In this document: piece by piece, positions 294-56,032 of the stretch
Numbering within the stretch: position 1 is the stretch's first letter
Layout: each line of letters begins with the position of its first letter
DNA from: an uncultured Gammaproteobacteria bacterium
GTDB lineage: Bacteria; Patescibacteriota; Patescibacteriia; UBA9570; CAZNEH01
Direction of reading: 5' to 3'
Length of the DNA: 64,000 bases
Assembly (NCBI GenBank): GCA_964572175.1
Contig: CAZNEH010000001.1
Span: 9,788-73,787 of the forward strand
Program-made: the position numbers and the translations under genes
The notes under the pieces: generated by a model
Database searches by the model: none
What the model saw: the letters and a program-made list of their open reading frames with translations, nothing else
What the model was told of the DNA's origin: nothing

Positions 294-1196
294 ATGAATA
301 TGAAAATTAAACAAGTCCATGAGCAATTTTGTGAATATCAAATTGCTTTTAAGGGTTTTAGCCCTAAAACTATATTAGGTTATCAGATTGCCCTGGGAAT
401 ATTTCTTAAACATTTTCCTGAGATCAATTCTTTTGAACAGATTACCGAAACAAAAGTACAAAAGTTTTTTTACTGGGGGAGAACTGAAAGAAATTGGTTG
501 CCAGCAACATTTATCACATACCACAAACGCCTTAAGGTGTTTTTTGATTACTTAGTTAAAAATAGCTTTATAGCCAAGAATCCATTTGAGAATATTGATA
601 AGCCTAGTTTGGGCAGAAGACTCCCAAAAGCTTTGACAAAACAACAAGCACAACAAATATTAGACAAAGCCTTACATGAGAGTGCAGTAAAAGAATTCAC
701 CCGTATTCGTAATCATGCAATGTATACCGTGTTTCTACATGCTGGTTTGCGTAAGGGTGAAGTTTTAAAGTTAACTATGCAAGATGTTGACCTAACTAAC
801 AATAGATTGAGCATTCGTGAAGCTAAGGGCGATAAAGACCGCTTTGTGCCAATATCAAGTAAGCTTCATTCAGTTTTAACTCGTTATGTTAATCTCAGAG
901 TAAAAGAGGGGAAATATGCAGAACAGTTTTTTGTATCTTCAAACCGAGATGTTGGGCTTACTGATAATGGCTTGAAGCATGTACAAGATACCATGGAAGC
1001 CTTGGTAGACTTTAAATTTCATCTTCACAAGCTCCGCCATACTTTTGCTACGCTAATGCTTGACGGAGGCTGTAATATCTATACATTATCCAAGATTATG
1101 GGGCATAGTGATATAAAAACGACTACGATATATCTTTCAACATCTACGGAGTTACTTCAGAGCGAGATACATAAACATCCACTTAATTTAATTTGA
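294..1196 (+). CDS. tyrosine site-specific recombinase / integrase (phage integrase family)
   Basis: C-terminal catalytic region has HKLRHTFAT...GHSDIKTTTIYL (R..H..R..Y signature). It lies immediately 3' of the tRNA and is a paralogue of the 4838..5743 product. Confidence 0.85.
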   Translation: MNMKIKQVHEQFCEYQIAFKGFSPKTILGYQIALGIFLKHFPEINSFEQITETKVQKFFYWGRTERNWLPATFITYHKRLKVFFDYLVKNSFIAKNPFENIDKPSLGRRLPKALTKQQAQQILDKALHESAVKEFTRIRNHAMYTVFLHAGLRKGEVLKLTMQDVDLTNNRLSIREAKGDKDRFVPISSKLHSVLTRYVNLRVKEGKYAEQFFVSSNRDVGLTDNGLKHVQDTMEALVDFKFHLHKLRHTFATLMLDGGCNIYTLSKIMGHSDIKTTTIYLSTSTELLQSEIHKHPLNLI

Positions 1197-4837: not shown

Positions 4838-5743
4838 ATGGAATTAAGAGAAGCTTTTAAACAATTTATTGTTGAAAGTCAAAATGGACGCTTTGCTTAT
4901 AATTCTGATAAAACTATTTTGAAACATAAAAATGTTTTTGAGCTTTTTGTAAAATGGATTCCGACAGAAAGAGTTCAAGATTTAAATGAAGAGCTGTTAT
5001 GGAGATATTTTAATAAAGGAGAAACTACTCGAGACTGGAAACCATCAACCGTGATAACTAATCGTACTAGTCTTTCAAGATTTTTAGATTGGTGCGTGAT
5101 TAATAAATTATTAAAAGAAAATCCTATAAAAAAAATTCCACGACCAAGATTAATTAAAAACACTCCCGACTATTATAGCGAGGAGGAAATTGACAAGATT
5201 TTGTATACTGTCAACAAATTATTTAAACGACAATTAACTAGAGCGAGAAACATGGCAATGATAGGGATTATGTTATTGGCAGGCCTTAGAAAGGGTGAAT
5301 TATTAAAACTAAAAATAACTGATGTTGATTTCAGTAATAAAGTTATAAGAATTAGAGCAGAAAATGCAAAAAATAGGAAGCCTAGGTCTCTGAATATAAG
5401 TCATAAATTAGAAGAACTACTAAAGGTTTATATTTCGTTGAGAGAGAAAAAAGGGATCAAAGCTTATAGCTTATGGGTATCATCAAATAATCATGCTCCA
5501 CTAACTGAAAATGGTTATAATCATATATTAGAAACGTTATCAGAGGGGGTTGGATTTAAGGTTAAATCTCATAAGTGTAGGCATACCTTTGCAACTTACG
5601 CATATAAAGGATGTAAAGATATTATGGCAGTAAAAGATGCCTTAGGACATGCTGATTTAAAAACCACGCTAGTTTATGCTACTCCCTTAGCTGAATCTAC
5701 TAAGTTAACTATAGAAGTTAATCCGATAAATGATTTGTTTTAA
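4838..5743 (+). CDS. tyrosine site-specific recombinase / integrase (second copy)
   Basis: HKCRHTFATYAY...GHADLKTTLVYA catalytic signature. Shares N-terminal blocks with the 294..1196 product. Confidence 0.85.
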   Translation: MELREAFKQFIVESQNGRFAYNSDKTILKHKNVFELFVKWIPTERVQDLNEELLWRYFNKGETTRDWKPSTVITNRTSLSRFLDWCVINKLLKENPIKKIPRPRLIKNTPDYYSEEEIDKILYTVNKLFKRQLTRARNMAMIGIMLLAGLRKGELLKLKITDVDFSNKVIRIRAENAKNRKPRSLNISHKLEELLKVYISLREKKGIKAYSLWVSSNNHAPLTENGYNHILETLSEGVGFKVKSHKCRHTFATYAYKGCKDIMAVKDALGHADLKTTLVYATPLAESTKLTIEVNPINDLF

Positions 5744-10789: not shown

Positions 10790-10869
10790 TATTTCTTAAT
10801 ATAAAAAAACTCACCGCGCGACTCGCTTGATGACGAATCGCTTGGTGAGGGGTCCCGGGGCTTGGATCC

Positions 10870-11076
10870 CTAGGCGGTCATGGGGAGGTCAGAGTTCAGG
10901 AAGGCCTGGGAGGTCGCCATGAAGGCTTCCATTTCCCCGGAGGCGGCGATGGCACCTAGGTCGACCTGGTGAAGCAGGGCGCTGCCCTCTTGTTTGTTGT
11001 AGACCAGGTTCGGTTGTCCGTCGAGGGTGAGGATGCCCACAGTTCCTTGCATTTCGAACTTCCACTTGTCGTTCAT
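10870..11076 (-). CDS. GC-rich small protein (68 aa) in a solitary cassette
   Basis: Minus-strand promoter TTGACA (11148..11143) - N17 - TAAGGT (11125..11120). The ORF has high GC (~60%, by eye) in a ~35% GC genome. Downstream minus-strand terminator hairpin CTCACC...GGTGAG plus T7 at ~10800..10850. Confidence 0.5.
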   Translation of the reverse strand: MNDKWKFEMQGTVGILTLDGQPNLVYNKQEGSALLHQVDLGAIAASGEMEAFMATSQAFLNSDLPMTA

Positions 11077-11389
11077 GTCGGCTCACTTTCAGGGCTTTGC
11101 CCTTTTGAGATTCACCCCAACCTTACCCATTTATAATGAAATTGTCAACCTATCTACGGTAGACAGGCTTTGTTTGGGGGTATGGAGGGTTTTGGAGGTG
11201 GGGGAGGGGGATTTGGAAGTGGCTCAACAAAAAAGCCGACAGTTTTTGTCGGTGTTTGTGGAGTTGTTGAGGAGTGAAATTGTTTGATATTTGCTAAGCT
11301 TGATTTAAAGTCTTATTAAGTGTTATAATATATTTACTTGTGGATAAACATAGATATTTAATAAATTCATTATTATTTAAATAAATACA

Positions 11390-24222: not shown

Positions 24223-25860
24223 CTAGTCTATCCTAAGTTTGTGGATATATCGAGAATTTTTAATTTTATTGCCATCTTGCCAAAGTTGGAAGGTTAGGGT
24301 GTTTTTCTTTTTCTTTAAACCAGAAATGTCTTGAAGATTGAAAGTAAAATGTCCGCGAGAAGGGTTGTCGACTTTAGCGTCGTCGAGGTAAGTTAAGAAT
24401 TCTCCATTAACATATAAGGCAGTGTCATCAGCGCGCCAAGTAGAGGTGCCTTTGTTTTTATAGTTTAAAGTTACTTCTGGGTTCCAGCCTTCTTGAATAG
24501 CGGTGGGTAAATTTTGGTTTTTTAAGACCGCGTGGTAAGGACTGTCGACACGATAGGTGATGTAGGTGCGGGACTTGGAAATATACTGATCCTCGTCGCG
24601 GAAAAGACGTAAGGAAATAGTGTGTTCGCCGCGAGTATCAAAATCCCATTTAAAATTAAAAGTATATTCTTCTCCTACAGCGACTTTTTCTTTAATGTAG
24701 ATTTTTTTCTTTTGTAAAGTTTCAGGGTCGCGGACTTTTAAGTAGACTTTGTTTTTTGGAAAGTTTCGTTCTCCAGTATTTTTATATTTAACAGTAATAG
24801 TTTCTTGGGTGTCGATTAAGTAAGCAGTATCGAAAGAGTGTTCTTTTAGCTTGGCCTTACGGGCTTTAGCCACTTGTAAAGAAGAATATTTGTTTTTAGA
24901 TTTACTTATAATAGTATCTAGTTGGTCGTAGATTAGATTGCCCGGACAAGCAGTGTAATCAATATCTTTGTGGCCAATAACCGCATCAACCATAGAGCCT
25001 TGTAAGTTTCGTTGACCGTTTAAAGAAATACTTAGGTCAGAGGCTTTGTTAGAAATTAGATTAGTTAAAGCACTTTGGATTTGAGAAGTGTATTCATCAG
25101 GTTCTGAACAAGCAGTTTCGTCGTAGCAGCCCATAACAGAGATGCCAATGGTGTACTGGTTGTAATCTATATTAGTGTAATCATTATAAGCATGAGCTCC
25201 GATAACTTTGTCGCCTCCGTAGCGGCCTTCGTAGATGTTTCCGCTTTTGTCGATAAGGTAATTATAACCAATGTCGCCCCAGCCTAGGATTTGAGCGTGA
25301 TAATAGTAAATACCACGAACTGTGGCCATTGGGTCGTCTCCGCCATCAGAGCCGGCAGTGTGGTGAATAACAAAAGTTGTAGGCTCGGTATAGCTTGGTT
25401 CCCAAAAACGATAGCTATCATCAGCGCCCCATTCGTCGCGAGTAACTACGTCGATGCTGTATTTGGTTTGGAGTAATTCTAATTCTGTGGAAACAGAGTT
25501 GGTTAGAGATGGCTCTGGAGCTGGACGAGAATCGAAATAAGAAATTTCTAAAGGAACGTTAGTTGAGATATTTAGCTGAGTGCTTATTTCAAAGATAGGA
25601 TCAGAGAAATAATGACCAGGATTACCAGGATAAGCTCCTTCCATTGCCTCTATTAAAGTATTATTTATTGTTATTTTAGGATTTGAGTATTCTTTAGACC
25701 ATTTTACGCCAAAGCCGTTGAATTCAAAGTCTGTAGTGATTTGATAGTCACCTGGGTCTATATTTATTGTGTTAGAAGTAGTTTCGGCTAAAACTGTGGA
25801 AGAAAATAAAAAACTTGCTAAAAGCAAGAATGAAATTATTAAGAAAGTATTTTTTTTCAT
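24223..25860 (-). CDS. secreted N-acetylmuramoyl-L-alanine amidase (Amidase_2/PGRP domain) with C-terminal beta-rich domains
   Basis: Signal peptide. Motifs VIHHTAG, GWGDIGYNYLIDKSGNIYEGR and ACPGN are typical of Amidase_2. Confidence 0.75.
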   Translation of the reverse strand: MKKNTFLIISFLLLASFLFSSTVLAETTSNTINIDPGDYQITTDFEFNGFGVKWSKEYSNPKITINNTLIEAMEGAYPGNPGHYFSDPIFEISTQLNISTNVPLEISYFDSRPAPEPSLTNSVSTELELLQTKYSIDVVTRDEWGADDSYRFWEPSYTEPTTFVIHHTAGSDGGDDPMATVRGIYYYHAQILGWGDIGYNYLIDKSGNIYEGRYGGDKVIGAHAYNDYTNIDYNQYTIGISVMGCYDETACSEPDEYTSQIQSALTNLISNKASDLSISLNGQRNLQGSMVDAVIGHKDIDYTACPGNLIYDQLDTIISKSKNKYSSLQVAKARKAKLKEHSFDTAYLIDTQETITVKYKNTGERNFPKNKVYLKVRDPETLQKKKIYIKEKVAVGEEYTFNFKWDFDTRGEHTISLRLFRDEDQYISKSRTYITYRVDSPYHAVLKNQNLPTAIQEGWNPEVTLNYKNKGTSTWRADDTALYVNGEFLTYLDDAKVDNPSRGHFTFNLQDISGLKKKKNTLTFQLWQDGNKIKNSRYIHKLRID

Positions 25861-25909
25861 GTTTTTATTTTAGGGCGTTATTCTATTATAGCAAAAAAAA
25901 GAGCCCTCG

Positions 25910-26166
25910 TCAAGATGAATCGAGGAGGGCGAGAGGATCGTCCTGGCGGACGTGTTGTGATCGCTTGAGGGTCGGCAGCCAGTTGGGTACCTCGCGAAGC
26001 TGGGTGATGGTTCGTTGCCCAGAGATGCCGTGGTAGCCTTGGAGTGGTCCAGAGCGAATCTTGGTCCACCGGGGATGGTTGGTGAAGACCCACCAGCCAC
26101 GTTCGTTTTTGACTCGCAAGAAGATGATGGTGTGTCCGTCTTTGCGAGAGACGTAGGATTCGAACA
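25910..26166 (-). CDS. GC-rich small protein (85 aa) in a solitary cassette
   Basis: Minus-strand promoter TTGACT (26223..26218) - N17 - TATAAG (26200..26195), GGAG ribosome-binding site, ATG at 26166 (MFESYVSRKDGHTIIFLRVKNERGWWVF...). High local GC. The 123-aa track ORF is trimmed to this start. Confidence 0.5.
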
Positions 26167-26241
26167 TGAGTTTCTCCGGGTTGAGGTGTAGTTTTCTTAT
26201 ATCATTGATTTTAACTTGAGTCAAGGGTATAATAAAGACAT

Positions 26242-26971: not shown

Positions 26972-27298
26972 ATGGAATTAGAAGTAAAAATTTTAGAAAA
27001 TGGGAGCGGGGAAAAAGAATCTAAGAATGGTGATCTATTAACAGTTCATTATACTGGAACTTTAAAGGATGGAACTAAATTTGATTCAAGTTTAGATCGT
27101 AAACAGCCGTTTTCTTTTAAAGTTGGTGAAGGTCAAGTTATCGAAGGATGGGACCAAGGATTATTAAGAATGAAGATAGGAGAAAAAAGAAAATTAACTA
27201 TTCCTTCAGAACTTGGTTATGGGCAATCCGGAGCTGGAGATGTGATTCCTCCGGGAGCAGTTTTAATTTTTGAAGTAGAGTTAATCTCTATTAACTAG
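26972..27298 (+). CDS. FKBP-type peptidyl-prolyl cis-trans isomerase
   Basis: GDLLTVHYTGTLKDGTKFDSS...GWDQGLLRMKIGEKRKLTIP..YG canonical FKBP fold motifs. Confidence 0.9.
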   Translation: MELEVKILENGSGEKESKNGDLLTVHYTGTLKDGTKFDSSLDRKQPFSFKVGEGQVIEGWDQGLLRMKIGEKRKLTIPSELGYGQSGAGDVIPPGAVLIFEVELISIN

Positions 27299-27843
27299 AA
27301 AAAAGATACGCCGTAAGTAATTAAAGTAATAAAAATAATATTACCCAGAATAAGAGGAATAATAATTAGACGAAAAGGAACTTTGATAGCGGCTAAAAAG
27401 GCAGTAACTACGTCATTAGGCAGGGGGGTAAAGGCAGAGTAGAAAAATAAAAATATAGGAACAGTCCAAAGATGTTTTTGATGGACCCACTTATCAATCG
27501 GGTCTATTTTTTTATCTAAATATTCAGGCAAGGCATGGCGGCCTTTTTTACCCAAAAAGAAAAAGATTATATCACCAGAGCCGATGCCCAAACCTCCAAG
27601 AATACCTAAGGCCAGGGGATTAAGGCCTCCAGCGCCTAAAGTGGCGATAGTGGCGTAAAAAAAGCTAGTGGTTAAGAGCGAGCTACCGCCGATTACTGCT
27701 GAGACAAAAGCTAGAATATATCCGTTTTGAACACCAATTAAGTTAACAAAGTTTTCCGGGCCATAATAAAAAACAAATAAGCTCCAGATAATTAAAGCTA
27801 TTAAAATTATAAAAAAGGCTAGATATTTTATATTTTTTTTCAT
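27295..27843 (-). CDS. integral membrane protein (possible DedA/TVP38-like)
   Basis: Four or five TM helices. Family assignment is weak. Confidence 0.5.
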   Translation of the reverse strand: MKKNIKYLAFFIILIALIIWSLFVFYYGPENFVNLIGVQNGYILAFVSAVIGGSSLLTTSFFYATIATLGAGGLNPLALGILGGLGIGSGDIIFFFLGKKGRHALPEYLDKKIDPIDKWVHQKHLWTVPIFLFFYSAFTPLPNDVVTAFLAAIKVPFRLIIIPLILGNIIFITLITYGVSFF

Positions 27844-27889
27844 TGTTATAAGTATAGCCTAATTCTTGAATAAAAAAAAGCAGCCCCCA

Positions 27890-28111
27890 CTAGTGGCAGA
27901 TCTCGGAGATCGTTTCGCCACAGCGAGGGCAGTAGAAGGGATAGATGCCAGACGGACGCCAGGCCTTGGTGACACTTCCACGAAGAGCAGTGATGCATTG
28001 GCGGCATCCACGAACCTTGACTTGAAGGACTTGCTTGTCATGGAGCTTGGTTCCGCAGCCGATGCAGAACTTGTTGTCGTTCTGAGAGCTGAATTGGCAG
28101 CATGGCTTCAT
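27890..28111 (-). CDS. GC-rich Cys-rich zinc-ribbon small protein (73 aa) in a solitary cassette
   Basis: Minus-strand TTGACT (28171..28166) - N16 - TAAACT. Ribosome-binding site GGGGGA, then ATG at 28111. MKPCCQFSSQNDNKFCIGCGTKLHDKQ...CRQC...CPRCGETISEICH has multiple CxxC pairs. Confidence 0.5.
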   Translation of the reverse strand: MKPCCQFSSQNDNKFCIGCGTKLHDKQVLQVKVRGCRQCITALRGSVTKAWRPSGIYPFYCPRCGETISEICH

Positions 28112-28242
28112 GAGTTCCCCCTGAAAGAGCTTGAGTTGTACCAAGTTTACTAGAAATAGAGATAAAGTCAAATTGTGGATAAGATTTTGGGGATATGGTA
28201 TACTAAAAGAGTATTAATTTAAAATAATTAACTTAAAAAATT

Positions 28243-30378
28243 ATGTGGAGGAAAGCATTGTTTTTAGGCGCTATTCTTAGCGTTGTTTTTGTATTTCCCT
28301 TTGCCATGCAAGCAGCGGTAAGCACATCTGTTGATTTGTATGGAGGGTATGTAGAAGACGTAGTAATTGGGCCTAGTGGGGAGTTTATGGTCTTAACTAT
28401 GTCTCCTAATGGAGCGTGGCTTAGCACAGATGGATCTTCTTATACAGGTCCAGACAGTTCGACTCATGATATGGGTAATTGTACAGCTGGAGGAGCAGAT
28501 GCAAATTATTTTTATGCTGATTGCGGAATCGAGCTTTGGCAAAGTGGTGACGGTCTTATTTGGACAGATACAGGTCTAAGTAATGTTGGGCAATATGTCT
28601 ATGTTGATGACAATAGAATTATTCAGGTAATGAGAGGTAGTGACGAATATATGACTTTGGCGATTTCTGAAGATCAAGGAGCAACCTGGACAGAAGCAAC
28701 TGTTACTGGAGTAGAAAATATAGTAGACATGTCTTTTGCTGGAGATGTTGGCTATATGGTGGCTACTTTAAGTAGTGAATATGAAATTTATAAGACTACT
28801 GACGGAGGAGCTACTTGGTCTGGAACTGGCTATACTATTAGCAGTGGAACAAATTTTAGTATTGCCACTAAAGCATCTGATGATAGCTATGTAGGTTTAA
28901 GAGTTGATGATAGCGGTTATCTTTCTACTGATGGAGGTAGTAGTTTTACTGATTTAGGATTATCTATGGCTGGAGAGATGCAGTTTGTAGGAGATACTTT
29001 ATGGTCTGGTTTAGATTCTACAGATGATGATGGAGCTACTTGGACCCAAAGAGACGGAGGAGATGTGGCTGTAGGTGTAAATGATGTGGCGATTAGCGGA
29101 AGCACAATTTTAGCAGGAACAGGCTTAGGAACAGCCATTTCTACAGATGATGGAACTACTTGGACTGAGGCAACCGATGGTATTGAGGCTTTGGAAGTTG
29201 AGCAAATTGCTCAAAAAACAGGAGATAGAGACAAGGTTATTTTAGCAATTTATGGAGGAGTAGCTAGAACAGAGAATTTTACAGATAGCAATCCAACTTG
29301 GGTCTTAGATACTGAAGTTGGTTCTTCCACAGCTGTATTTTATGGAACAGATATAGCCTTAGTCGGAGCTTCAGAAAATATTTATTATTCTACTGATGAT
29401 GGAGTTACCTGGACTTCTGCAGGGCCAGCCGGAGGAACAGTTACTGACTTTATTAGAAGCGACAGTGTTTATTATGCGGCTTATAATGGAGGGGTTCTTT
29501 CTAGCGCAGATGGAATTACTTGGACAGATTTTGGGTTAAATGGTTATGCAGTTAATGCCATAGCTAAGACTAGTAATGAAAGATTTTATGCTGTAATTGG
29601 AGGAGAGGCAAATACTACTGGAGCTAATTCAGGGATTTATAAATACAATGGTAGTAGCTGGAGTCAAGTATATAGCGGAGGTTTTTATACTGATATAGAA
29701 GTAGTTGATAATATCAAAGGAAGTAATGTGGTTTATGCTGTATCTGCAGTTTCTGGAGATAGTGAATTCGGAGAAGTAATTATGTCTACTGATTATGGAA
29801 CAAGCTGGGATGATATAACAGCTAATGGCTTGGCTACAGATGGATGGTTTCATCAAGTAGTGGCCCAAGGAAACAATAAAGATGTTTTATATGTTTCTAC
29901 AGCTCGACCAGCGGGAACAGGAACTATTTATAAAACTTTAGATGGTGGTGATACTTGGAGTTTATTTCTTACTGGTTTAAGAGATGAAACTTTCCAAGCT
30001 ATGTATTGGGATGATCTAATGGTTGGGTCTAACGCTGGATTAATGAATGTTAATTCTGAAGCAAAGATTGCAGTAACTAGAACTAAGAAAAAAGTTAAAT
30101 CTGGAAATAAGTCTAGATTAAAAGTAACTTTGACTGATAAAGACACTGGAGATGCTTTAGCTAATAAGCCAGTTAAGCTTTATAGAAGATATAAAACTAC
30201 TGGAACTTGGAAATTATTAAAAACAAAGAAAACTGGAGCTAAAGGAAAAACTAATTTTTACAGAAAGATAACTAAGAAGACTTACTTTAAAGTAAGTTGG
30301 AAACCAGTTAAGGCAGCGGTTAAGAGAGCTTATGGCTCTAGTGCTTATAAAAAGTTGACTAATGTGAAGATTAAATAA
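28243..30378 (+). CDS. secreted BNR/Asp-box repeat beta-propeller protein with Lys-rich FN3-like C-terminal domain
   Basis: Signal peptide. Repeated S/T-x-D-x-G-x-T-W motifs (TTDGGATWS, STDDGTTWT, STDDGVTWT, TLDGGDTWS). Basic C-terminal tail. Confidence 0.75.
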   Translation: MWRKALFLGAILSVVFVFPFAMQAAVSTSVDLYGGYVEDVVIGPSGEFMVLTMSPNGAWLSTDGSSYTGPDSSTHDMGNCTAGGADANYFYADCGIELWQSGDGLIWTDTGLSNVGQYVYVDDNRIIQVMRGSDEYMTLAISEDQGATWTEATVTGVENIVDMSFAGDVGYMVATLSSEYEIYKTTDGGATWSGTGYTISSGTNFSIATKASDDSYVGLRVDDSGYLSTDGGSSFTDLGLSMAGEMQFVGDTLWSGLDSTDDDGATWTQRDGGDVAVGVNDVAISGSTILAGTGLGTAISTDDGTTWTEATDGIEALEVEQIAQKTGDRDKVILAIYGGVARTENFTDSNPTWVLDTEVGSSTAVFYGTDIALVGASENIYYSTDDGVTWTSAGPAGGTVTDFIRSDSVYYAAYNGGVLSSADGITWTDFGLNGYAVNAIAKTSNERFYAVIGGEANTTGANSGIYKYNGSSWSQVYSGGFYTDIEVVDNIKGSNVVYAVSAVSGDSEFGEVIMSTDYGTSWDDITANGLATDGWFHQVVAQGNNKDVLYVSTARPAGTGTIYKTLDGGDTWSLFLTGLRDETFQAMYWDDLMVGSNAGLMNVNSEAKIAVTRTKKKVKSGNKSRLKVTLTDKDTGDALANKPVKLYRRYKTTGTWKLLKTKKTGAKGKTNFYRKITKKTYFKVSWKPVKAAVKRAYGSSAYKKLTNVKIK

Positions 30379-34287: not shown

Positions 34288-36777
34288 ATGGATGAAGGAA
34301 TGTTATTTTTTGGCCTAGTTTTAGTGGCTTTTACTTGCTACGCTGGGTTTAAGTTTAAATCTCGAGCCATGCGTTATATTGGCTTGTTTTTTAGTATTGT
34401 TATCGCTTTATTTTTTCTTTTGAATAATATTGCCTTTGCTCAAACTGATTTTGATTTAAGTGAATTAAATCAGTTTACAGGAGAGGATTTAGCTGATTTT
34501 GCAGGAAAAAGCGTTAGTTATGCTGGGGACGTAGATGGTGATGGATATAATGATTTTATAGTTGGGGCTGATCAGAATGATGATGGCGGAAATCAAGCCG
34601 GAGCAGCTTATTTAATTTATGGGCAGTCTGAAGAATATTCTTCATTAACTGATTTATCAACGGTAGCTAAATTTATTGGAGAAGCAGGTGGTGATTATGC
34701 TGGAAAAAGCGTTAGTTATGCTGGGGACGTAGATGGTGATGGATATGATGATTTTTTAATTGGAGCTTATTTAAATGATGATGCCGGAAGTCAGGCCGGA
34801 GCAGCTTACTTAATTTATGGGCAAAGCGATAAGTATACAGGAGATATTGATTTGTCTACTAAGGCACAATTTACCGGAGAGGCAATTGATGATTATGCGG
34901 GGGTAAATGTATCCTCGGCTGGTGATGTAGATGGTGATGGATATGATGACTTTTTAGTTGGGTCTAGTAGAAATGGAGATGGAGCAAGTAAAGCTGGTGC
35001 AGCTTATTTAATTTATGGACAAAGCGCTGATTATACTGGAACAATTAGCTTGTCTACTAGGGCACAATTTACTGGAGAGGCAATTGATGATTATGCTAGT
35101 AAGGTTTCAGCAGCTGGAGACGTAGACAATGATGGGTATGATGATTTTTTAGTTGGATCTAAAGATAATGATGACGGAGGAAGCGGTGCTGGTGCAGCTT
35201 ATTTAATTTATGGACAAAGCGCTGATTATACTGGAACAATTAGCTTGTCTACTAGGGCACAATTTACCGGAGAGGCAGCTGGTGATTCTTCGGGAGTATC
35301 TGTTGCTGCGGCCGGTGATGTTGATAATGACGGATACGATGATATTTTAATTGGAGCATTTTTAAATGACGATGGTGGAAGTCAAGCTGGAGCAGTTTAT
35401 TTAATATATGGCCAAAGCGCCGATTATACTGGAACGTCTAACTTGTCTACTAAAGCACAATTTACCGGAGAGGCAGCTGGTGATGACGCAGGGGTAAGTG
35501 TAGCTTCGGCTGGAGATGTTGATAATGATGGGTACGATGATTTTTTAGTAGGAGCTTATTTAAATGATGCTGGTGGAGATATTGCCGGAGCAGCTTATTT
35601 AATTTATGGGCAAAGCGCGGATTATACAGGAACAGCTAGTTTGTCTACTAAGGATAAGTTTATTGGAGAAGAATCATTGGATTATGCAGGAATAAGCGTA
35701 TCGACAGCTGGTGATATTAATAATGATGGTTATAGTGATATTTTAATAGGGGCTTATCAAAATAGTGAGGGTGGAAGTCTGGCTGGAGCAGCTTATGTGG
35801 GTTATTTGCATATTGATTTAGATGGAGACGGGGTAACAGCTACTACTAGCTTAATTGCCGGAACTGATTGTAATGATAATGACGCAGCAATTTCTGCTAA
35901 TCAAACTTATTATCAGGATTCAGATGGCGATGGTTATGGCTCAGACACTACTACTTCGGTTTGTTCTTTAACAGCGCCGACAGGCTATGTGGCTAACTCA
36001 GATGATGCTAATGACAATGATTATGATAATGATGGCTCAGAAACCGGAACTGATTGCGATGATACTGATGATACTATTAGTGAGAATCAAACTTATTATC
36101 TAGATTCAGATGGAAATGGGTATGGTGATCCAGCAGAGACCACAGAGGTTTGTTCTTATACTGTGCCAGATGGTTATGCGTCTGAGGCTCGACTAGATGT
36201 GCCAGAAAATTTAGTTAATACAGACAGAGGAATTTATAAGGCTACTTTAGGTTGGGATGAAGTTAGTGATGTAGAAAGTTATAATATTAGATATAGAAAG
36301 TCTTCTGAATCAAGCTATACGACTACTACTAGTTCTATAAATAGTGTGGAGTTGGAAGATTTAGAAAATGCGGGAAAATATTATTGGCAAGTACAGGGGG
36401 TATCTGGTAGTTATACTTCAGAATGGACAGATGGAAAAAGATTAGTAACTTATCCAAGAAAGATAACTAAGTCTGAATTTACTTTTCCTAAGTCTGATAG
36501 AAAAGCAAAGAAGCTTAGAATAAAAATAGAGACTATGGCTAAAAGAGTGACTGGTTTTAATATTTTAGTTTATAAAAAGAAGAGTGGAAAGTGGAGTAAA
36601 ATAGAAACAGTTAAAAGATCTAATGATAGTTCTAAGAATTATGTTTATAAATATATTACTGGGTTAAAGCCAGATACTAAATATAAGTTTGAAGTAAAAG
36701 CTAGGAGAACTATTGGTTCAACTAAATACTTAAGTCAGAACGTAGCCACCAGATATATTACGACTAAATCGCTATGA
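34288..36777 (+). CDS. secreted FG-GAP (integrin-alpha-like) repeat beta-propeller protein with MopE-like Cys repeats and Lys-rich FN3-like C-terminal domain
   Basis: Seven or more repeats of AGDVDGDGYDDFL(I/V)GA...AGAAYLIYGQS. CNDND/CDDTD Cys motifs. Basic C-terminus. Confidence 0.8.
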   Translation: MDEGMLFFGLVLVAFTCYAGFKFKSRAMRYIGLFFSIVIALFFLLNNIAFAQTDFDLSELNQFTGEDLADFAGKSVSYAGDVDGDGYNDFIVGADQNDDGGNQAGAAYLIYGQSEEYSSLTDLSTVAKFIGEAGGDYAGKSVSYAGDVDGDGYDDFLIGAYLNDDAGSQAGAAYLIYGQSDKYTGDIDLSTKAQFTGEAIDDYAGVNVSSAGDVDGDGYDDFLVGSSRNGDGASKAGAAYLIYGQSADYTGTISLSTRAQFTGEAIDDYASKVSAAGDVDNDGYDDFLVGSKDNDDGGSGAGAAYLIYGQSADYTGTISLSTRAQFTGEAAGDSSGVSVAAAGDVDNDGYDDILIGAFLNDDGGSQAGAVYLIYGQSADYTGTSNLSTKAQFTGEAAGDDAGVSVASAGDVDNDGYDDFLVGAYLNDAGGDIAGAAYLIYGQSADYTGTASLSTKDKFIGEESLDYAGISVSTAGDINNDGYSDILIGAYQNSEGGSLAGAAYVGYLHIDLDGDGVTATTSLIAGTDCNDNDAAISANQTYYQDSDGDGYGSDTTTSVCSLTAPTGYVANSDDANDNDYDNDGSETGTDCDDTDDTISENQTYYLDSDGNGYGDPAETTEVCSYTVPDGYASEARLDVPENLVNTDRGIYKATLGWDEVSDVESYNIRYRKSSESSYTTTTSSINSVELEDLENAGKYYWQVQGVSGSYTSEWTDGKRLVTYPRKITKSEFTFPKSDRKAKKLRIKIETMAKRVTGFNILVYKKKSGKWSKIETVKRSNDSSKNYVYKYITGLKPDTKYKFEVKARRTIGSTKYLSQNVATRYITTKSL

Positions 36778-42191: not shown

Positions 42192-42220
42192 TTGACAGGG
42201 GTAGTTTATTTAGGTAAGAT
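42192..42220 (+). promoter_or_regulatory. sigma-70-type promoter TTGACA-N17-TAAGAT (first cassette)
   Basis: TTGACA 42192..42197, GGGG-containing spacer, TAAGAT 42215..42220. AGGAGG ribosome-binding site at 42241. Confidence 0.6.
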
Positions 42221-42252
42221 ATTTACGAATCCACAAGCAAGAGGAGGAAATC

Positions 42253-42507
42253 TTGCAAGGACAGACACAGAGAGACAAGCATCCGGCCAAGCATGGCTGG
42301 GTCAAGGTCAAGAAGCTGGTGAACAACTCTCGTGGCCGACGGCGCCCGAAGCGCGTCTGGGTCCAGAGCGGCGATGCTCCTGGTAAGAAGGAGGAGCGCA
42401 TCAGGGCCAAGAAGAAGCGCGAGGCTCAGCAGAGAGCGGCAGCTCAAGAGGCCCGGAGGAAAAGGGATGAAGAGGAGCGCCGAGCAGCACGCCGCCGCTG
42501 GTGGTAG
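42253..42507 (+). CDS. highly basic Lys/Arg-rich small protein (84 aa), TTG start
   Basis: AGGAGG lies 6 nt upstream of the TTG start. KRK/RRR-rich sequence. GC-rich codons. Confidence 0.45.
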   Translation: MQGQTQRDKHPAKHGWVKVKKLVNNSRGRRRPKRVWVQSGDAPGKKEERIRAKKKREAQQRAAAQEARRKRDEEERRAARRRWW

Positions 42508-42533
42508 CTGGTTTTCAGCGACGAGTGTGAATA

Positions 42534-42578
42534 CCCCCCCCTGCAGCTCTACGGAGTTGACAGGGGTTATTTTTTTAT
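42534..42578 (+). terminator. terminator hairpin CCCCTG-N17-CAGGGG plus T-run, with the next promoter's -35 (TTGACA) embedded in the 3' arm
   Basis: CCCCCCCTG cagctctacggagttga CAGGGG TTATTTTTTT, followed by TATACT 18 nt after TTGACA. Confidence 0.55.
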
Positions 42579-42624
42579 TCTATACTTACATTACAATTTT
42601 TCAAACCGACGAAGGAAGATTCCC

Positions 42625-42834
42625 ATGAAGATGCTCAAGTGCGAGAACTGTGGATACCCTATGCCAGTATCTGGCAAAATCAACGAAGATGATGGCCTGC
42701 GGTGCCCGATCTGCAACGGGCTGATGAAGAAGCCTGGGGCCGGGGAGCCGACGACCGAGGTGGACATCACCGAACGTCCCTTCATTCCGCCGCGGCCACT
42801 GCCGCCGCCGACCGAGATCCCGGCCTACGCTTAG
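42625..42834 (+). CDS. zinc-ribbon small protein (69 aa)
   Basis: CENC...CPIC pairs. Ribosome-binding site GAAGGAAG. Pro-rich C-terminus. Confidence 0.5.
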   Translation: MKMLKCENCGYPMPVSGKINEDDGLRCPICNGLMKKPGAGEPTTEVDITERPFIPPRPLPPPTEIPAYA

Positions 42835-42961
42835 GCCAAGGACAACTTCGCGGGCATTAGCCCCACGACCCTAGGATGAGATTCATCTGATGGGTCGCTT
42901 TTTTTGACTAAAACAGGGTGGGGTGGTAGGCTAAAGTTAGCGTAAACCAAGGGAGGTACGC

Positions 42962-43348
42962 ATGTGTGAGAAAAGGTATTTCTTCGATGATCGTCAGTCC
43001 ACCCAGTTCAAGTGCGTCTGCGGGGGATCGGTCGTGGTTCTGGAGCATGATGCTCAGGCCGAGAAGATCGGGTGTCAGTCCTGCGGCAAGACGGCTCGGG
43101 TTCGTCCGAGTGCTTCTCCAGACACTCTGATCGAGTGCCAGCCGGAGAAGTGGTCGGGGACGAACTTCTACCTCGAGAACCATGGGCCCGACAAGGGCTG
43201 GACTCACTGCGGCCAGCCCATGGTGATCATCGGTCGTCTGGATGCTCACCTGTGGCCAGTTGGCTGCCAGGTCTGTGGAGCCATGGGCCATGTCGGACAC
43301 AACTCCACGCCCGAGGACTGGCCGCCCGACGGCAGCTGCTCTGGCTAG
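42962..43348 (+). CDS. Cys-rich small protein, family A member 1 (128 aa)
   Basis: Ribosome-binding site AAGGGAGG. Shares HCG(Q/R)(P/T)MVIIG...GCQVCG...H.G.N...W.P with the 45593..45934 product. Confidence 0.55.
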   Translation: MCEKRYFFDDRQSTQFKCVCGGSVVVLEHDAQAEKIGCQSCGKTARVRPSASPDTLIECQPEKWSGTNFYLENHGPDKGWTHCGQPMVIIGRLDAHLWPVGCQVCGAMGHVGHNSTPEDWPPDGSCSG

Positions 43349-43370
43349 AGCACACAACGACTTGTTCGAT

Positions 43371-43404
43371 GACCTATATTGGGGGATATAGGTCATATTT
43401 TTTT
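43371..43404 (+). terminator. rho-independent terminator (GACCTATAT family)
   Basis: GACCTATAT-tggggg-ATATAGGTC plus T-run. Confidence 0.7.
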
Positions 43405-43486
43405 CCGCCTTCGCAGACTGCGGCGGACAAGTTTGACTCTAATGGGGTGGGATGGTAGGGTTAAATTAACAAGGGAGGATTTAGAA

Positions 43487-43882
43487 ATGTCTAAGAGAAG
43501 TGAACCTTTTGACGCTTGCTTGGCTGGCTGGATGGAGTTGGAAGAGATGATGCTTCGGGATCGGCCCCCAGTTCGAGCGAGGAAGCTCAAGAAAGGGATG
43601 CTGAAGCGCTGGTCCTGGGTGACCAATTCCCGCGGGAAAAAGGTTCGGCGTAAGACCTGGGGTAAGCCTGGTCCGCCGCCGAAGCCTCGTTCGGGTAATC
43701 TAGTGGCCTTCAACGCTTCGGATCAGTGGCGGCTGCACCGGGCGGCTGGAGTTAAGAGCCGGAGGGACTGGGATAGGCTGACCACTTGCCAACAGGACGA
43801 GGTTTTTATGAAGGCCCTGGAAGATGGTTTGGAGCCCTTTAGCCTGGTCGATGGCTATCGGCACTTCTGCCGTGGCGACTAA
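43487..43882 (+). CDS. basic small protein (131 aa), start trimmed to the ATG with a ribosome-binding site
   Basis: AGGGAGG lies 7 nt upstream of the ATG at 43487. Promoter TTGACT-N17-TAGGGT at 43433..43461. Confidence 0.5.
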   Translation: MSKRSEPFDACLAGWMELEEMMLRDRPPVRARKLKKGMLKRWSWVTNSRGKKVRRKTWGKPGPPPKPRSGNLVAFNASDQWRLHRAAGVKSRRDWDRLTTCQQDEVFMKALEDGLEPFSLVDGYRHFCRGD

Positions 43883-43991
43883 CCCCTGTTCAACCCGAGT
43901 GGTTGACAGGGGGTATTTTTATTTGGGTTGACCCGGGGAGGGTTTTGTGCTAAGGTTAGGGCGCCTAATTCACAAAGGGAGGGCACACAAA

Positions 43992-44462
43992 ATGCTCGGT
44001 TTGATTTCCAGAGGCTGGCATATGTTCATGGGTCTGTGGGTGGAAGATATCGAGACGGTTCGCGGTGTTCCGCTGAAGCCTGGAGTGGTTCACGACCTCT
44101 TCATCTGCGGTGGCTGGCCGTTCAAGGCCGAGATCGTGCCGGAGTACGTGGCGATCAGGCCCAGGGGCGAGACCTGGCCGCTGGACTACGGTATGATGTC
44201 CAAGAGCTTCCGGCACCGTGACTCCAAGGCGCTGCAGGCCTACAACTGGTCCATGGTGCGTCGGACCGATGGCGGTCCCATGTTCGAGTGCGACCACAAC
44301 ATCTTCGTCCTCCGCGTCCACAAGGGTGAACTTCCTCGACATGATCACTTCATCGCACGCGAGGGGCGTGATTTCTCTGAGGCCCAGGTCTTAGAGGTCA
44401 TCGACGACGAGAAGGATCTGATCATGTGCGTCTGGATCCGCGAGGCCGGGCTCGTCGAGTAG
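43992..44462 (+). CDS. small protein, family B member 1 (156 aa)
   Basis: AGGGAGG ribosome-binding site. N-terminus MLGLISRGWHMFMGLWV is paralogous to MLSWLARPWNSFIGLWV of the 45252..45554 product. The ~70-bp promoter/5'UTR is near-identical to the one at 45182..45251. Confidence 0.55.
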   Translation: MLGLISRGWHMFMGLWVEDIETVRGVPLKPGVVHDLFICGGWPFKAEIVPEYVAIRPRGETWPLDYGMMSKSFRHRDSKALQAYNWSMVRRTDGGPMFECDHNIFVLRVHKGELPRHDHFIAREGRDFSEAQVLEVIDDEKDLIMCVWIREAGLVE

Positions 44463-44484
44463 CGGCGAAGACAACTAGTTCGAT

Positions 44485-44518
44485 GACCTATATCGGGGGG
44501 ATATAGGTCGTTTTTTTA
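44485..44518 (+). terminator. rho-independent terminator (GACCTATAT family)
   Basis: GACCTATAT-cgggggg-ATATAGGTC-G-T7. Confidence 0.7.
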
Positions 44519-44586
44519 TTGACTTAGAGTGGGGGAGATGTTAGGGTAAAAATAGTGTTCAACTTCAACCCCGAGCTCGAGGTGAG

Positions 44587-44799
44587 ATGATGAAAGGTGC
44601 TGCTCTCAGCTGTGTTCCCTGTGACTGGACGGCGACTGATGTGTCCAATGCAAGGTTCTGTCCGTTCTGTGGAGATGATCTGGAGAAGAAGGGAGTCCTG
44701 GGCAAGAAGGTTCCCTTCCGGGTGAAGCTCTTGGCCCGCGTGCCCGTGACCGCGAGGCTCAGGCGCCTGGCTTCTATCTTCGGGGAAGACAAGCGCTAG
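44587..44799 (+). CDS. zinc-ribbon small protein (70 aa)
   Basis: CVPC...CPFC pairs. Promoter TTGACT-N17-TAGGGT at 44519..44547. Confidence 0.5.
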   Translation: MMKGAALSCVPCDWTATDVSNARFCPFCGDDLEKKGVLGKKVPFRVKLLARVPVTARLRRLASIFGEDKR

Positions 44800-44927
44800 A
44801 CAGCGACGACGAGGTAAGTGTGGGCCGTGCCCGCCATAGTCCTGATTCATATCGGGACGACGGCGGGTCTATTTTTTTGACTAAAAAAACAGGGGATGTT
44901 AGAGTATTATTATCAAGGGGGAAAGAC

Positions 44928-45143
44928 ATGGATTTTAGTATTTTTCTAGTGGCAATGATCGTGGCTTCACTGGGCCTGGGTAAACACTTCGTTTTCAGGG
45001 GCGCAGAAAAAATGGATCGCTTCAAAAAGAATACGGGGCGCACCGTTACAGAGCGAGAAGAGGTACACGAGGCAGAGGGCCTTCTTCTGGCAGGGGGCAT
45101 CCTGATTTTCTTGGCGTTCAATGCCGCGATGTTCATTCTTTAG
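44928..45143 (+). CDS. small two-TM membrane protein (71 aa)
   Basis: Ribosome-binding site AAGGGGGA, ATG at 44928. Two hydrophobic helices. Promoter TTGACT-N17-TAGAGT at 44877..44905. Confidence 0.45.
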   Translation: MDFSIFLVAMIVASLGLGKHFVFRGAEKMDRFKKNTGRTVTEREEVHEAEGLLLAGGILIFLAFNAAMFIL

Positions 45144-45251
45144 CCCGCTACAGTCTTCGGACCACGGCGGGTTCTTTTTTTATTTGGGTTGACTCGGGAG
45201 GGTTTTGGTGCTAAGGTAAGGGCGCCTAATTCACAAGGGAGGGCATGTAAG

Positions 45252-45554
45252 ATGTTGTCATGGTTGGCTAGACCGTGGAATTCATTCATTGGTCTGTGGG
45301 TTCATGGTGCCCCTCAGATCGAGGATCAGCAGGTTTCCGAGCCGCTGCAGGTCGACGAGGTCGAGCTGGTGGTCGGGGAGACCTTCTTTTTCCAGAGGGA
45401 CAAGTTCTTCATCGTGATCACCTGGAGTGCTCGCAGCGCGCGGCGTCCGGTGGTCGGCGATCGGATCAAGGGATCGTCTGGGCAGGACGCGATCGTGCTG
45501 TCGACCATTCCTGGAGAGAAGAACAAGTACCTCTGCCGGATCATGATCGACTAG
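45252..45554 (+). CDS. small protein, family B member 2 (100 aa)
   Basis: AGGGAGG ribosome-binding site. Paralogue of the 43992..44462 product. Co-transcribed with the downstream family A gene, with no intervening terminator. Confidence 0.55.
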   Translation: MLSWLARPWNSFIGLWVHGAPQIEDQQVSEPLQVDEVELVVGETFFFQRDKFFIVITWSARSARRPVVGDRIKGSSGQDAIVLSTIPGEKNKYLCRIMID

Positions 45555-45592
45555 GCAGAGCAGAACTACACGAATCACACGAGGAGGTGTGC

Positions 45593-45934
45593 ATGTCGGA
45601 AGCGAGGTACCACAAGAACCACTTCGGTCTGAAGGAGGGCTTCGAGCACTGCGGCCGGACCATGGTGATCATCGGATGTGGCGATCGTCTGGAGACGCTC
45701 GGCTGCCAGGTCTGCGGTCACACGCAGCACTCTGGCATGAACACGGAAAACTGGACGCCCACGTCGACGGATGACGAGGACGACGATCCGGAGGAGGAGT
45801 CAGCGCCTCGGCCCTGGCTTCGAGATTCGGGTCCCAGCTCCTGCGAAGGGTGTACTCGTTACGGGGAGACCTGTTCCGGGTCTACCTTCGGAGAATCGTG
45901 CACCGACGCAGATGATGGACACCGTAGCTGGTGA
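45593..45934 (+). CDS. Cys-rich small protein, family A member 2 (113 aa)
   Basis: AGGAGG ribosome-binding site, ATG at 45593. Motif EHCGRTMVIIGCGDRLETLGCQVCGHTQHSGMN is paralogous to the 42962..43348 product. Confidence 0.55.
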   Translation: MSEARYHKNHFGLKEGFEHCGRTMVIIGCGDRLETLGCQVCGHTQHSGMNTENWTPTSTDDEDDDPEEESAPRPWLRDSGPSSCEGCTRYGETCSGSTFGESCTDADDGHRSW

Positions 45935-45940
45935 TTCCAT

Positions 45941-45976
45941 GACCTACACCGGGGGGATGTAGGTCGTATTTTTTTA
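45941..45976 (+). terminator. rho-independent terminator (GACCTA family)
   Basis: GACCTACA-ccgggggga-TGTAGGTC plus T-run. Confidence 0.7.
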
Positions 45977-46036
45977 TTTTGACTAATTTGGGGTGGGGTG
46001 TTAAGGTTAAATTGAAAATAGTAACTTAGAACACTT

Positions 46037-51191: not shown

Positions 51192-51702
51192 ACATAAAAG
51201 ACACAAAAGAGCTAAGAATTTAACTCTTAGAATAGAAGGCGATGGCCTAGTTGTAGTGACTAGGCCGTGGTTTGTGCCGAAAAAATTAGCTGAGATATTT
51301 TTTCAAGAACAGCGAGAGTGGATACAGAAAAAGATTGAAGACATGAAAAAGAGCCAGCGAGTGGTTTTAGGCGGTAGTAGAGAGCATTATTTAAAACACA
51401 AAGAAGAGGCTAGGCAGTTAATTTGTGAAAGGCTGGAATATTATAATCAATTTTATGGTTTTAAGTATCAGCGAGTGAGTGTGCGTAATCAAAAATCTAG
51501 ATGGGGGAGTTGTTCGCAAGATGGTAATTTAAACTTTAATTATAAGGTTCTATTCTTGACAAAAGAGGCTAGAGACTATATTGTAATCCATGAGCTTTGC
51601 CACTTAAAAGAACTGAATCATTCACATAGATTCTGGGCTTTAGTAGAGCAACAAGTGCCTAATTATAAACAATTAAGAAGAAAAATACGTGGAGTTGAGT
51701 AA
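51175..51702 (+). CDS. YgjP-like (DUF45/WLM) zinc metallohydrolase
   Basis: HELCHLKELNHSHRFW HExxH motif near the C-terminus. Confidence 0.7.
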   Translation: MILLIKHKRHKRAKNLTLRIEGDGLVVVTRPWFVPKKLAEIFFQEQREWIQKKIEDMKKSQRVVLGGSREHYLKHKEEARQLICERLEYYNQFYGFKYQRVSVRNQKSRWGSCSQDGNLNFNYKVLFLTKEARDYIVIHELCHLKELNHSHRFWALVEQQVPNYKQLRRKIRGVE

Positions 51703-52654
51703 ATTAGAAGAAGTATTAAAAGATGAGCCTAAGTTTCGTTTAAAACAAATAGACGAGGCGATTTATGATAAAGCAATTGCTGGCTGGGATGAAGCAACGA
51801 CTCTTAGTAAACCTCTGAGAGAGAAGTTGAAAAAAGAATGTCCTTTAGGAATTAAAGGAAAAATATTTAAATCTGAAGACGGGAAAACAGAAAAAGCATT
51901 AATTGGAAAGGTAGAAGCTGTATTAATGAAGCATAAAGATGGCCGAGCCACGGTTTGCGTTTCTTGCCAAGAAGGATGCCCAATGGGATGTAGTTTTTGT
52001 GCTACTGGTAAGATGGGATTTTGTCGAAATTTAACAGCTGAGGAAATGGTGAGCCAAGTTTTATTTTTTAAACGCCAAGGTGAAGATATTTCTAATGTCG
52101 TGTTTATGGGAATGGGTGAGCCGTTTTTAAATTATGATGAAGTTTTAAAAGCAGTAAGGATTTTAAATAGTAAGATGGGCTTAGGAGCGCGTCGGATTTC
52201 TATTTCTACTTGTGGAATTATTGACGGAATTAAAAAATTAGCTAAAGAGGATTTACAAGTTAATTTAGCTTTAAGTTTGCATGCTCCGAATAATAAATTA
52301 CGGAGTCAATTAATGCCGGTAAATAATCGTTATAGTTTAGACAAAGTTTTGTCTGCGATTAATGATTATATTAAGCGGACAAATCGTCGAGTAATGCTAG
52401 AGTATGTAATGCTTGATAAAGTAAATGATAGCGAAGAACATGCCAAGGAGTTGGCTTGGTTATTGAAAAATAGTTTAAGTGGTTTATACATGGTTAATTT
52501 GATTAATTATAATCAAACTGGAAAGTATAAGCCGTCTGAAAATATTGAAAAATTTAAAGAAGTCTTGGAGCAAGAACATGTTCCAGTGACTCGTAGATAT
52601 AGTTTTGGGCAAGATATTAAAGGGGCTTGCGGGCAACTTGCTACGAAGAAATAA
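51689..52654 (+). CDS. rlmN: 23S rRNA (adenine2503-C2)-methyltransferase RlmN (radical SAM)
   Basis: CVSCQEGCPMGCSFCATG radical-SAM cluster motif. C-terminal GACGQL. Confidence 0.85.
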   Translation: MELSKLEEVLKDEPKFRLKQIDEAIYDKAIAGWDEATTLSKPLREKLKKECPLGIKGKIFKSEDGKTEKALIGKVEAVLMKHKDGRATVCVSCQEGCPMGCSFCATGKMGFCRNLTAEEMVSQVLFFKRQGEDISNVVFMGMGEPFLNYDEVLKAVRILNSKMGLGARRISISTCGIIDGIKKLAKEDLQVNLALSLHAPNNKLRSQLMPVNNRYSLDKVLSAINDYIKRTNRRVMLEYVMLDKVNDSEEHAKELAWLLKNSLSGLYMVNLINYNQTGKYKPSENIEKFKEVLEQEHVPVTRRYSFGQDIKGACGQLATKK

Positions 52655-55988: not shown

Positions 55989-56032
55989 GTTTTTATTGAG
56001 ACGCGATGAATCGTGTCTTTACTAATTATTAT

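Follow-up and report, generated by a model that had tools for sequence, protein, structure and literature searches.

The GC-rich unit S3 is a cassette of about 300 bases on the minus strand of an AT-rich genome. The window, by which we mean the whole stretch of DNA that was analyzed, is 64,000 nucleotides long and has a mean GC content of 36.6%. Within S3 the GC content was 0.53–0.56 (positions 27880–28125), compared with 0.22–0.26 in the intergenic flanks. The cassette is bordered by a VTT/DedA-like gene on one side and by a gene for a 711-aa BNR-like (BNR-repeat surface-protein) product on the other. It lies inside the divergent promoter region of these two genes and has the same orientation as the VTT gene.

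A preliminary description of this DNA had listed for S3 a minus-strand ORF of 73 codons, a promoter with hexamers TTGACT and TAAACT, a GGGGGA ribosome-binding site, and an A8 run with a GC-rich hairpin downstream. The letters matched every one of these features, and their positions are given in Table 1. The promoter hexamers were present, but their match to the consensus is not significant by itself: the region contained four promoter-like sites, and 3.2 were expected by chance. Transcription from this promoter is predicted to start near position 28137. The distance from the −10 hexamer to the ATG is 32 nt, close to the 25–29 nt in A4 and A3, two of the related units described below. The GGGGGA site gave a duplex of −9.4 kcal/mol, calculated with a generic anti-Shine-Dalgarno sequence. 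At the other end of the cassette, the 48-nt hairpin (27930..27883) had a folding energy of −29.5 kcal/mol (z = −4.9), and none of 200 shuffled sequences was equally stable. It overlaps the final 13 sense codons and the stop codon of the ORF and is followed by UGC and then by U8 at 27879..27872.

Table 1 Positions of S3, its flanking genes, and the other GC-rich units in the window
Feature	Positions	Strand	Remarks
VTT/DedA-like gene	27295..27843	−	flanks S3
S3 intrinsic terminator	27872..27930	−	hairpin, UGC, and U8, in that order
S3 coding sequence	27890..28111	−	73 aa + TAG; MKPCCQF...SEICH; ATG at 28111, TAG 27892..27890
S3 Shine-Dalgarno site	28116..28121	−	GGGGGA; 4 nt upstream of ATG
S3 −10 hexamer	28144..28149	−	TAAACT; 16-nt spacer; consensus scan
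S3 −35 hexamer	28166..28171	−	TTGACT; consensus scan; −35 common to S2 and most array units
Shadow ORF	27866..28153	+	95 aa; TTG start; called by public pipelines; singleton; −14.9 bits; no Pfam family
BNR-like gene	28243..30378	+	711 aa; flanks S3
S1 solitary cassette	10803..11150	−	TTGACA-17-TAAGGT; ORF 10870..11076 (68 aa); hairpin + T7
S2 solitary cassette	25885..26224	−	TTGACT-17-TATAAG; ORF 25910..26167 (85 aa); hairpin + T8
A1–A9 array	42192..46010	+	nine GC-rich units; repeated terminator + promoter modules

Twelve GC-rich units in the window

A GC scan combined with direct reading of the sequence identified 11 further cassettes. The window thus contains 12 GC-rich units, of which three (S1–S3) are solitary and nine form an array at 42.2–46.0 kb. 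S3 had been called the third solitary GC-rich cassette, and the other two solitary units do share its build. A unit typically consists of a TTGAC −35 sequence, a −10 sequence, a leader of 25–35 nt, an ORF of 68–156 aa, and a hairpin followed by T7 or T8. The same terminator build was found in 10 of the 12 cassettes; the exceptions were A4, which has T5, and A8, which is in an operon with A9. In the array, the −10 sequence is usually of the extended form TGnTAnnnT, a pattern that occurred nine times in the window with 0.35 occurrences expected.

A small number of terminator and promoter modules, repeated and shuffled, make up the junctions of the array. One such module is GACCTATAT-N-GGGGGATATAGGTC, and its copy after A9 has a compensatory change in the stem. 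Another sequence, TTGACAGGGGT, doubles as terminator arm and −35 box at 42192, 42549, and 43903. The last promoter copy of the array (45979–46007) faces a native AT-rich gene at 46037. Some of the ORFs are paralogous. A3 and A9 are paralogues (50% identity over 54 aa; E 6e-12) with a dN/dS of ~0.44; A5 and A8 have the promoter, the leader, and the first 17 codons in common; and A1 and A4 are weakly similar. Public gene calls on Logan contigs left S2 (25885–26224), A2 (42625–42834), and A8 (45252–45554) uncalled and extended A9 upstream over A8.

Two features beside the solitary units were also recorded. S2 occupies a position comparable to that of S3. The stop codon, terminator arm, and T8 of S2 (25885–25913, minus strand) sit within the 17-nt spacer of a native promoter, TTGACG-17-TATAAT, which serves an amidase/endolysin-like gene (24223..25860); because S2 ends there, the cassette supplies the −35 box of the amidase gene. 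Beside S1, positions 11146–11262 contain a G-rich tract, GGGGGTATGGAGGGTTTTGGAGGTGGGGGAGGGGGATTTGG, and then a hairpin, GCCGACAGTTTTTGTCGGT, and the two are flanked by a 9-nt direct repeat, TGAAATTGT, at 11137 and 11275.

The cassettes were compared with 44 native ORFs of the window. GC3 ranged from 0.15 to 0.45 (median 0.26) in the native ORFs and from 0.57 to 0.80 in the cassettes, and the amino-acid composition of the cassettes was shifted in the same direction. Translation starts differed as well. A Shine-Dalgarno duplex at least as stable as −6 kcal/mol preceded 11 of the 12 cassette ORFs but only 3 of the 44 native genes (Mann-Whitney p = 2.5e-7 for the contrast between native and cassette starts). 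When each native gene was given its best start within 40 codons, 2 of 44 reached −9 kcal/mol, compared with 8 of 12 cassettes. Conversely, a near-consensus TATAAT box 4–12 nt before the ATG, in leaderless style, was found in 17 of the 44 native genes and in none of the 12 cassettes. The native (TGn)TATAAT boxes at this distance and the scarcity of Shine-Dalgarno sites suggest a largely leaderless transcriptome. The family is foreign to its host in two independent ways, in composition and in translation initiation.

The neighbors of the cassettes are chromosomal genes, including those for transketolase, FKBP, GreA, ornithine carbamoyltransferase (OTCase), carbamate kinase, a 1695-aa kinase, MscS, and EamA. 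The window yielded no gene for a phage structural protein, and a prophage context was rejected, the surroundings being ordinary chromosomal genes. A second set of contigs, the Logan contigs of SRR8146440, matched 6.5 kb around S3 and 10.8 kb around the array at 100% identity. This agreement leaves no credible case for chimerism at 24 junctions, and an assembly artifact was rejected. No convincing terminal inverted repeats or target-site duplications were found around S1, S2, or S3, and a transposable element (IS or MITE) was rejected on this ground. We were unable to link S3 to a donor, an insertion scar, a target duplication, or a recombinase. The only tyrosine recombinases in the window, at 294..1196 and 4838..5743, belong to a tRNA-Thr island and are 27–41 kb away.

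Several other features of the window were noted. The tRNA-Thr (181–256) adjoins the recombinase genes, and partial tRNA-like direct repeats are present at 29–77/181–229 and 211–257/7209–7255. The segment 1–7260 looks like one or two integrated elements with DUF4238 and Schlafen/AlbA_2 genes. Surface-protein genes at 59300–60540 and 34520–35810 contain in-frame repeat arrays, one composed of Asp-rich DxDxDG-type units with periods of ~87–93 nt and the other of 198-nt FG-GAP units. On the minus strand at 55050–56923, the ornithine carbamoyltransferase and carbamate kinase genes are adjacent and form part of an arginine deiminase-type pathway.

Foreign DNA of this kind could persist as a decaying or silent remnant of a past transfer, in which case S3 would be a former gene that is here neither expressed nor selected. 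That S3 is an orphan, and that the first zinc knuckle of its product is degenerate (see below), would fit such a history. S3 nevertheless has an intact promoter, Shine-Dalgarno site, and ATG, an ORF without interruption, and a strong and intact terminator, and the dN/dS of A3 and A9, paralogues of the same family, also speaks against it. Moreover, S3 retains a GC3 of 0.68 in a genome whose genes stand at 0.26, a difference that points to recent arrival or to maintenance. We consider a remnant distinctly unlikely and prefer to regard S3 as an intact, horizontally acquired unit.

Coding strand of S3

It had been pointed out that both strands of S3 give ORFs, and this was the case: in addition to the 73-codon ORF, a plus-strand ORF of 95 aa and two shorter minus-strand ORFs are open. 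The minus strand had been chosen, and codon usage, GC3, the Shine-Dalgarno site, the order of promoter and terminator, the cysteine motif, and a match to the Pfam family DZR all favored that choice. Because none of the collections searched contained a homologous locus, the decision rests on intrinsic evidence of this kind.

To score codon usage, we used the 11 remaining GC-rich cassettes of the window as the training set. The resulting model picked the annotated frame in 10 of 11 leave-one-out trials, with the caveat that the choice of training ORFs had relied in part on the same criteria. It gave +23.9 bits for the minus frame of S3 and −14.9 bits for the plus-strand ORF. In 5000 dinucleotide-preserving shuffles, with the best of six frames taken each time, the maximum was 21.6 bits, so that p < 2e-4 for the observed score. 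For the minus frame, the cassette codon model outperformed the native model by 67 bits. The GC3 of this frame (0.68) resembles that of the other cassettes (0.57–0.80).

The possibility that neither strand codes for protein was also considered. In AT-rich genomes, genes for non-coding RNA classically stand out as GC-rich islands, and S3 is such an island in AT-rich intergenic DNA, with a promoter and terminator that bracket ~265 nt and with both strands open. It might then be a gene for a structured RNA in which the ORF is incidental. Folding of the whole transcript, however, was no better than that of shuffled sequences (z = −0.7 for the minus strand and +0.1 for the plus strand), and Rfam searches were negative both at the gathering threshold and at E <= 1. 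In addition, the codon, Shine-Dalgarno, and cysteine-motif signals are specific to one frame. An RNA gene is thus very unlikely, and we return to S3 as a protein-coding unit.

Public pipelines call the plus-strand ORF as the gene at this site, on a Logan contig from SRR8146440, and its 95-aa product is listed by NCBI as well. This ORF is the longest of the region, and with GC1 > GC2 it looks as a gene should to a caller trained on an AT-rich genome. In this ORF, GC1 (0.64) exceeded GC3 (0.51), and GC peaks at position 1 because position 1 on the plus strand complements position 3 on the minus strand. The public call was probably made because a gene model trained on AT-rich DNA expects GC1 > GC3. 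Long antisense ORFs in the same complement register also lie opposite A3 and A5, where the sense strand is certain; the 95-aa ORF is therefore a shadow ORF. Its negative codon score and its lack of a Pfam match agree with this. Its TTG start lies within the A8 run and has no Shine-Dalgarno site, the ORF crosses the minus-strand promoter, and its product was a singleton among 5.8 billion clusters. We give almost no credence to the view, implicit in the public annotation, that it is the real gene. The combined evidence supports the minus-strand 73-codon ORF as the gene, and S3 is probably a real minus-strand protein gene of foreign origin.

The S3 protein and the search for relatives

The predicted S3 product has 73 residues, a mass of 8.2 kDa, and a pI of 9.1. 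It contains nine cysteines (positions 4, 5, 16, 19, 36, 39, 61, 64, and 72), which form three CxxC motifs and an N-terminal CC, and two histidines (24 and 73). Open stretches of at least 60 aa with at least nine cysteines and at least three CxxC motifs were rare in shuffled DNA, with 3 found among 32,295 such stretches from 20,000 shuffles (~1e-4). The Pfam family DZR (PF12773, double zinc ribbon) matched S3 with an E value of 1.9e-5; the plus-strand ORF matched no Pfam family in the same search. Because the DZR score of 25.2 bits is below the cut-off of 27.3, "zinc ribbon" stays a prediction at the level of sequence.

The stretch KFCIGCGTKL fits a common ribbon repeat, CPxCG-x8-KFCxxCGxxL. 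Of the two predicted ribbons, the second is canonical (C36xxC39 ... C61PRC64G); the first would use C4/C5 together with C16xxC19G, and its first knuckle is CC, not CxxC. The earlier assignment of S3 to the zinc-ribbon proteins is supported as such a prediction: the cysteine pattern and the DZR match agree with it, but the score is under the Pfam cut-off and the first knuckle departs from the motif. The likeness to zinc-ribbon proteins of the array, also proposed earlier, was borne out, in that at least five units (A2, A3, A6, A9, and S3) carry paired CxxC motifs; the likeness between S3 and A6 is confined to the ribbon motif. AlphaFold2 models made from single sequences without an alignment had pLDDT values of 45.9 for S3 and 39.5 for A5, too low to be informative. 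Judged from its cysteine spacing, the S3 protein would most likely fold around two zinc ions as two ribbons, of which the N-terminal one is degenerate. One alternative to an intracellular zinc protein is that S3 encodes the cysteine-rich precursor of a modified peptide, or else a toxin that is secreted. Such a product would likewise be small, with nine cysteines, and could come from a gene that stands alone; a radical SAM gene is also present in the window (51689..52654). That gene, however, lies 24 kb from S3, neither a maturase nor a transporter or signal peptide was found nearby, and the cysteines are spaced as in zinc-ribbon knuckles (CxxCG, CPxCG), with DZR as the match. We consider this alternative scarcely credible.

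Searches for relatives of S3 and its family gave the following results. A word-indexed search of 5.8 billion clusters found no homologues of S3, and the S3 antisense ORF and A5 each returned only their own sequence. With HMMER against 1.84 billion representatives, S3 gave just generic zinc-knuckle stretches of 20–40 residues in large repeat proteins, an example being CPNCGFQNIRDAKFCVGCGFKL, which aligned to S3 residues 3–24. GTDB genomes and JGI metagenomes gave motif matches of 21–23 residues only. Scans of IMG/VR with S3, A5, A3, and the conserved terminator hairpin gave zero matches, as did tblastn with all 12 proteins against phage and plasmid collections. No significant match was found in PHROGs, NCBIfam, or PADLOC, and a PDB sequence search returned merely matches to C2H2-like "PYxCPxCG" motifs. 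Exact-protein look-ups of the S3 neighbors, in a search for strains lacking the cassette, led back to the same sample only, the neighbors being singletons as well. A literature search turned up nothing relevant on run SRR8146440 or on comparable GC-rich cassettes in Patescibacteria. The S3 protein thus appears to be an orphan member of the broad zinc-ribbon class.

Interpretation and comparison with known systems

We interpret S3 as a self-contained unit of the moron type that was acquired horizontally, lies among chromosomal genes, and codes for a small, basic protein that binds zinc, and we assign this reading a probability of roughly 0.62. The full statement on S3, with binding through the zinc ribbons included, appears about equally probable. 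The acquired unit would have inserted into the divergent promoter region between the VTT and BNR genes. As judged from the sequence signals, a sigma-70-type promoter would start a monocistronic S3 mRNA of ~265 nt, and the Shine-Dalgarno site would drive translation of the 73-residue protein. The hairpin and U8, located partly inside the last codons, would end the transcript just upstream of the VTT gene; some read-through into that gene is possible because there is no good promoter between S3 and VTT. Because the protein is small and basic and lacks a catalytic motif, it probably acts by binding a nucleic acid or protein partner, and it might serve as a regulator or inhibitor rather than as an enzyme.

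The family as a whole may represent horizontally gained accessory cargo, most plausibly derived from mobile elements of a GC-rich, Shine-Dalgarno-using organism. A more ambitious proposal is that the 12 units are previously undescribed self-expressing mini-gene cassettes (promoter, Shine-Dalgarno site, small ORF, and terminator) that colonize promoter-proximal intergenic DNA of an AT-rich, largely leaderless, and possibly symbiotic bacterium. According to this proposal, a dedicated capture or insertion route would join the units head to tail at a T-run/TTGAC junction; their GC-rich, Shine-Dalgarno-dependent design would reflect an origin in, or action on, a GC-rich partner or its phages; and S3 would be one effector or inhibitor. 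We regard the proposal in this complete form as speculative and rather unlikely.

If S3 is merely another horizontally acquired orphan, it is of local interest only. On its own it is moderately interesting, and it is more so within the 12-unit family. If our interpretation is correct, gene callers trained on the AT-rich host assign the foreign small gene S3 to the wrong strand and miss S2, A2, and A8, and a small, streamlined-looking genome holds ~5 kb of ready-to-express foreign mini-genes in 64 kb. That the cassettes and their host differ in mode of translation initiation would provide an unusual and testable picture of gene gain. The orphan zinc-ribbon micro-proteins would become candidates whose targets could bear on conflict or symbiosis.

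Virulent phages, SPO1 and T4 among them, have host-takeover or early-gene modules in which very small orphan genes follow one another, each preceded by a strong promoter and a strong Shine-Dalgarno site. For the cassettes described here, by contrast, neither a phage context nor a phage homologue was found.

Integron cassettes and CALINs resemble the present units in consisting of small, mostly orphan, compositionally foreign ORFs in an array of uniform orientation, with repeated hairpin modules and solitary copies. Integron cassettes are promoterless and are expressed from Pc, with IntI adjacent. The units in our window carry their own promoters, no integrase is adjacent to them, and their hairpins are ordinary terminators with T-runs. 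A simple consensus test for the attC core pair (R'' RYYYAAC, R' GTTRRRY), which is not the IntegronFinder model, found none in the array or near S1–S3. An integron cassette or CALIN was rejected on the basis of attC, adjacent IntI, and promoterless organization.

With regard to the protein, the closest class is that of the C(P)XCG zinc-finger micro-proteins of the haloarchaeal HVO_2753 type (PMC11241148, PMC10716476), which have ~70 residues and the CxxCG and CPxCG knuckles also present in S3. Zn_Ribbon_1 is another Pfam name in the small zinc-ribbon class with which S3 was compared. The NCBIfam models for HVO_2753 and HVO_2142 matched S3 with E values of ~0.003–0.004 and ~17 bits, below their cut-offs of 80–90. 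S3 differs from these micro-proteins in that it shares just the generic knuckle motif, has CC as its first knuckle, and has no orthologue. Several C(P)XCG zinc-finger micro-proteins do not bind zinc (PMC11241148).

The closest concept is that of the phage morons, which are independent transcription units added to phage genomes, with their own promoter and terminator and a GC content unlike that of their surroundings (Cumby et al. 2012, PMC3594210). S3 is likewise a single small gene with sequence signals for its own promoter and terminator, and it likewise deviates sharply from its neighbors in GC content (0.55; GC3 0.68, against a native median of 0.26), implying horizontal transfer. Because the 12 units share codon usage and expression signals foreign to the host, they behave like phage morons, though in chromosomal DNA. 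They differ from phage morons in several respects: the surroundings of S3 are ordinary chromosomal genes and not a prophage, nine of the cassettes are joined head to tail in an array, the polarity runs from GC-rich into AT-rich DNA, and the cassettes depart from their host in the mode of translation initiation as well. What is new here is that units resembling morons occur without a phage around them, some in an array and others alone, in a genome that is AT-rich and largely leaderless.
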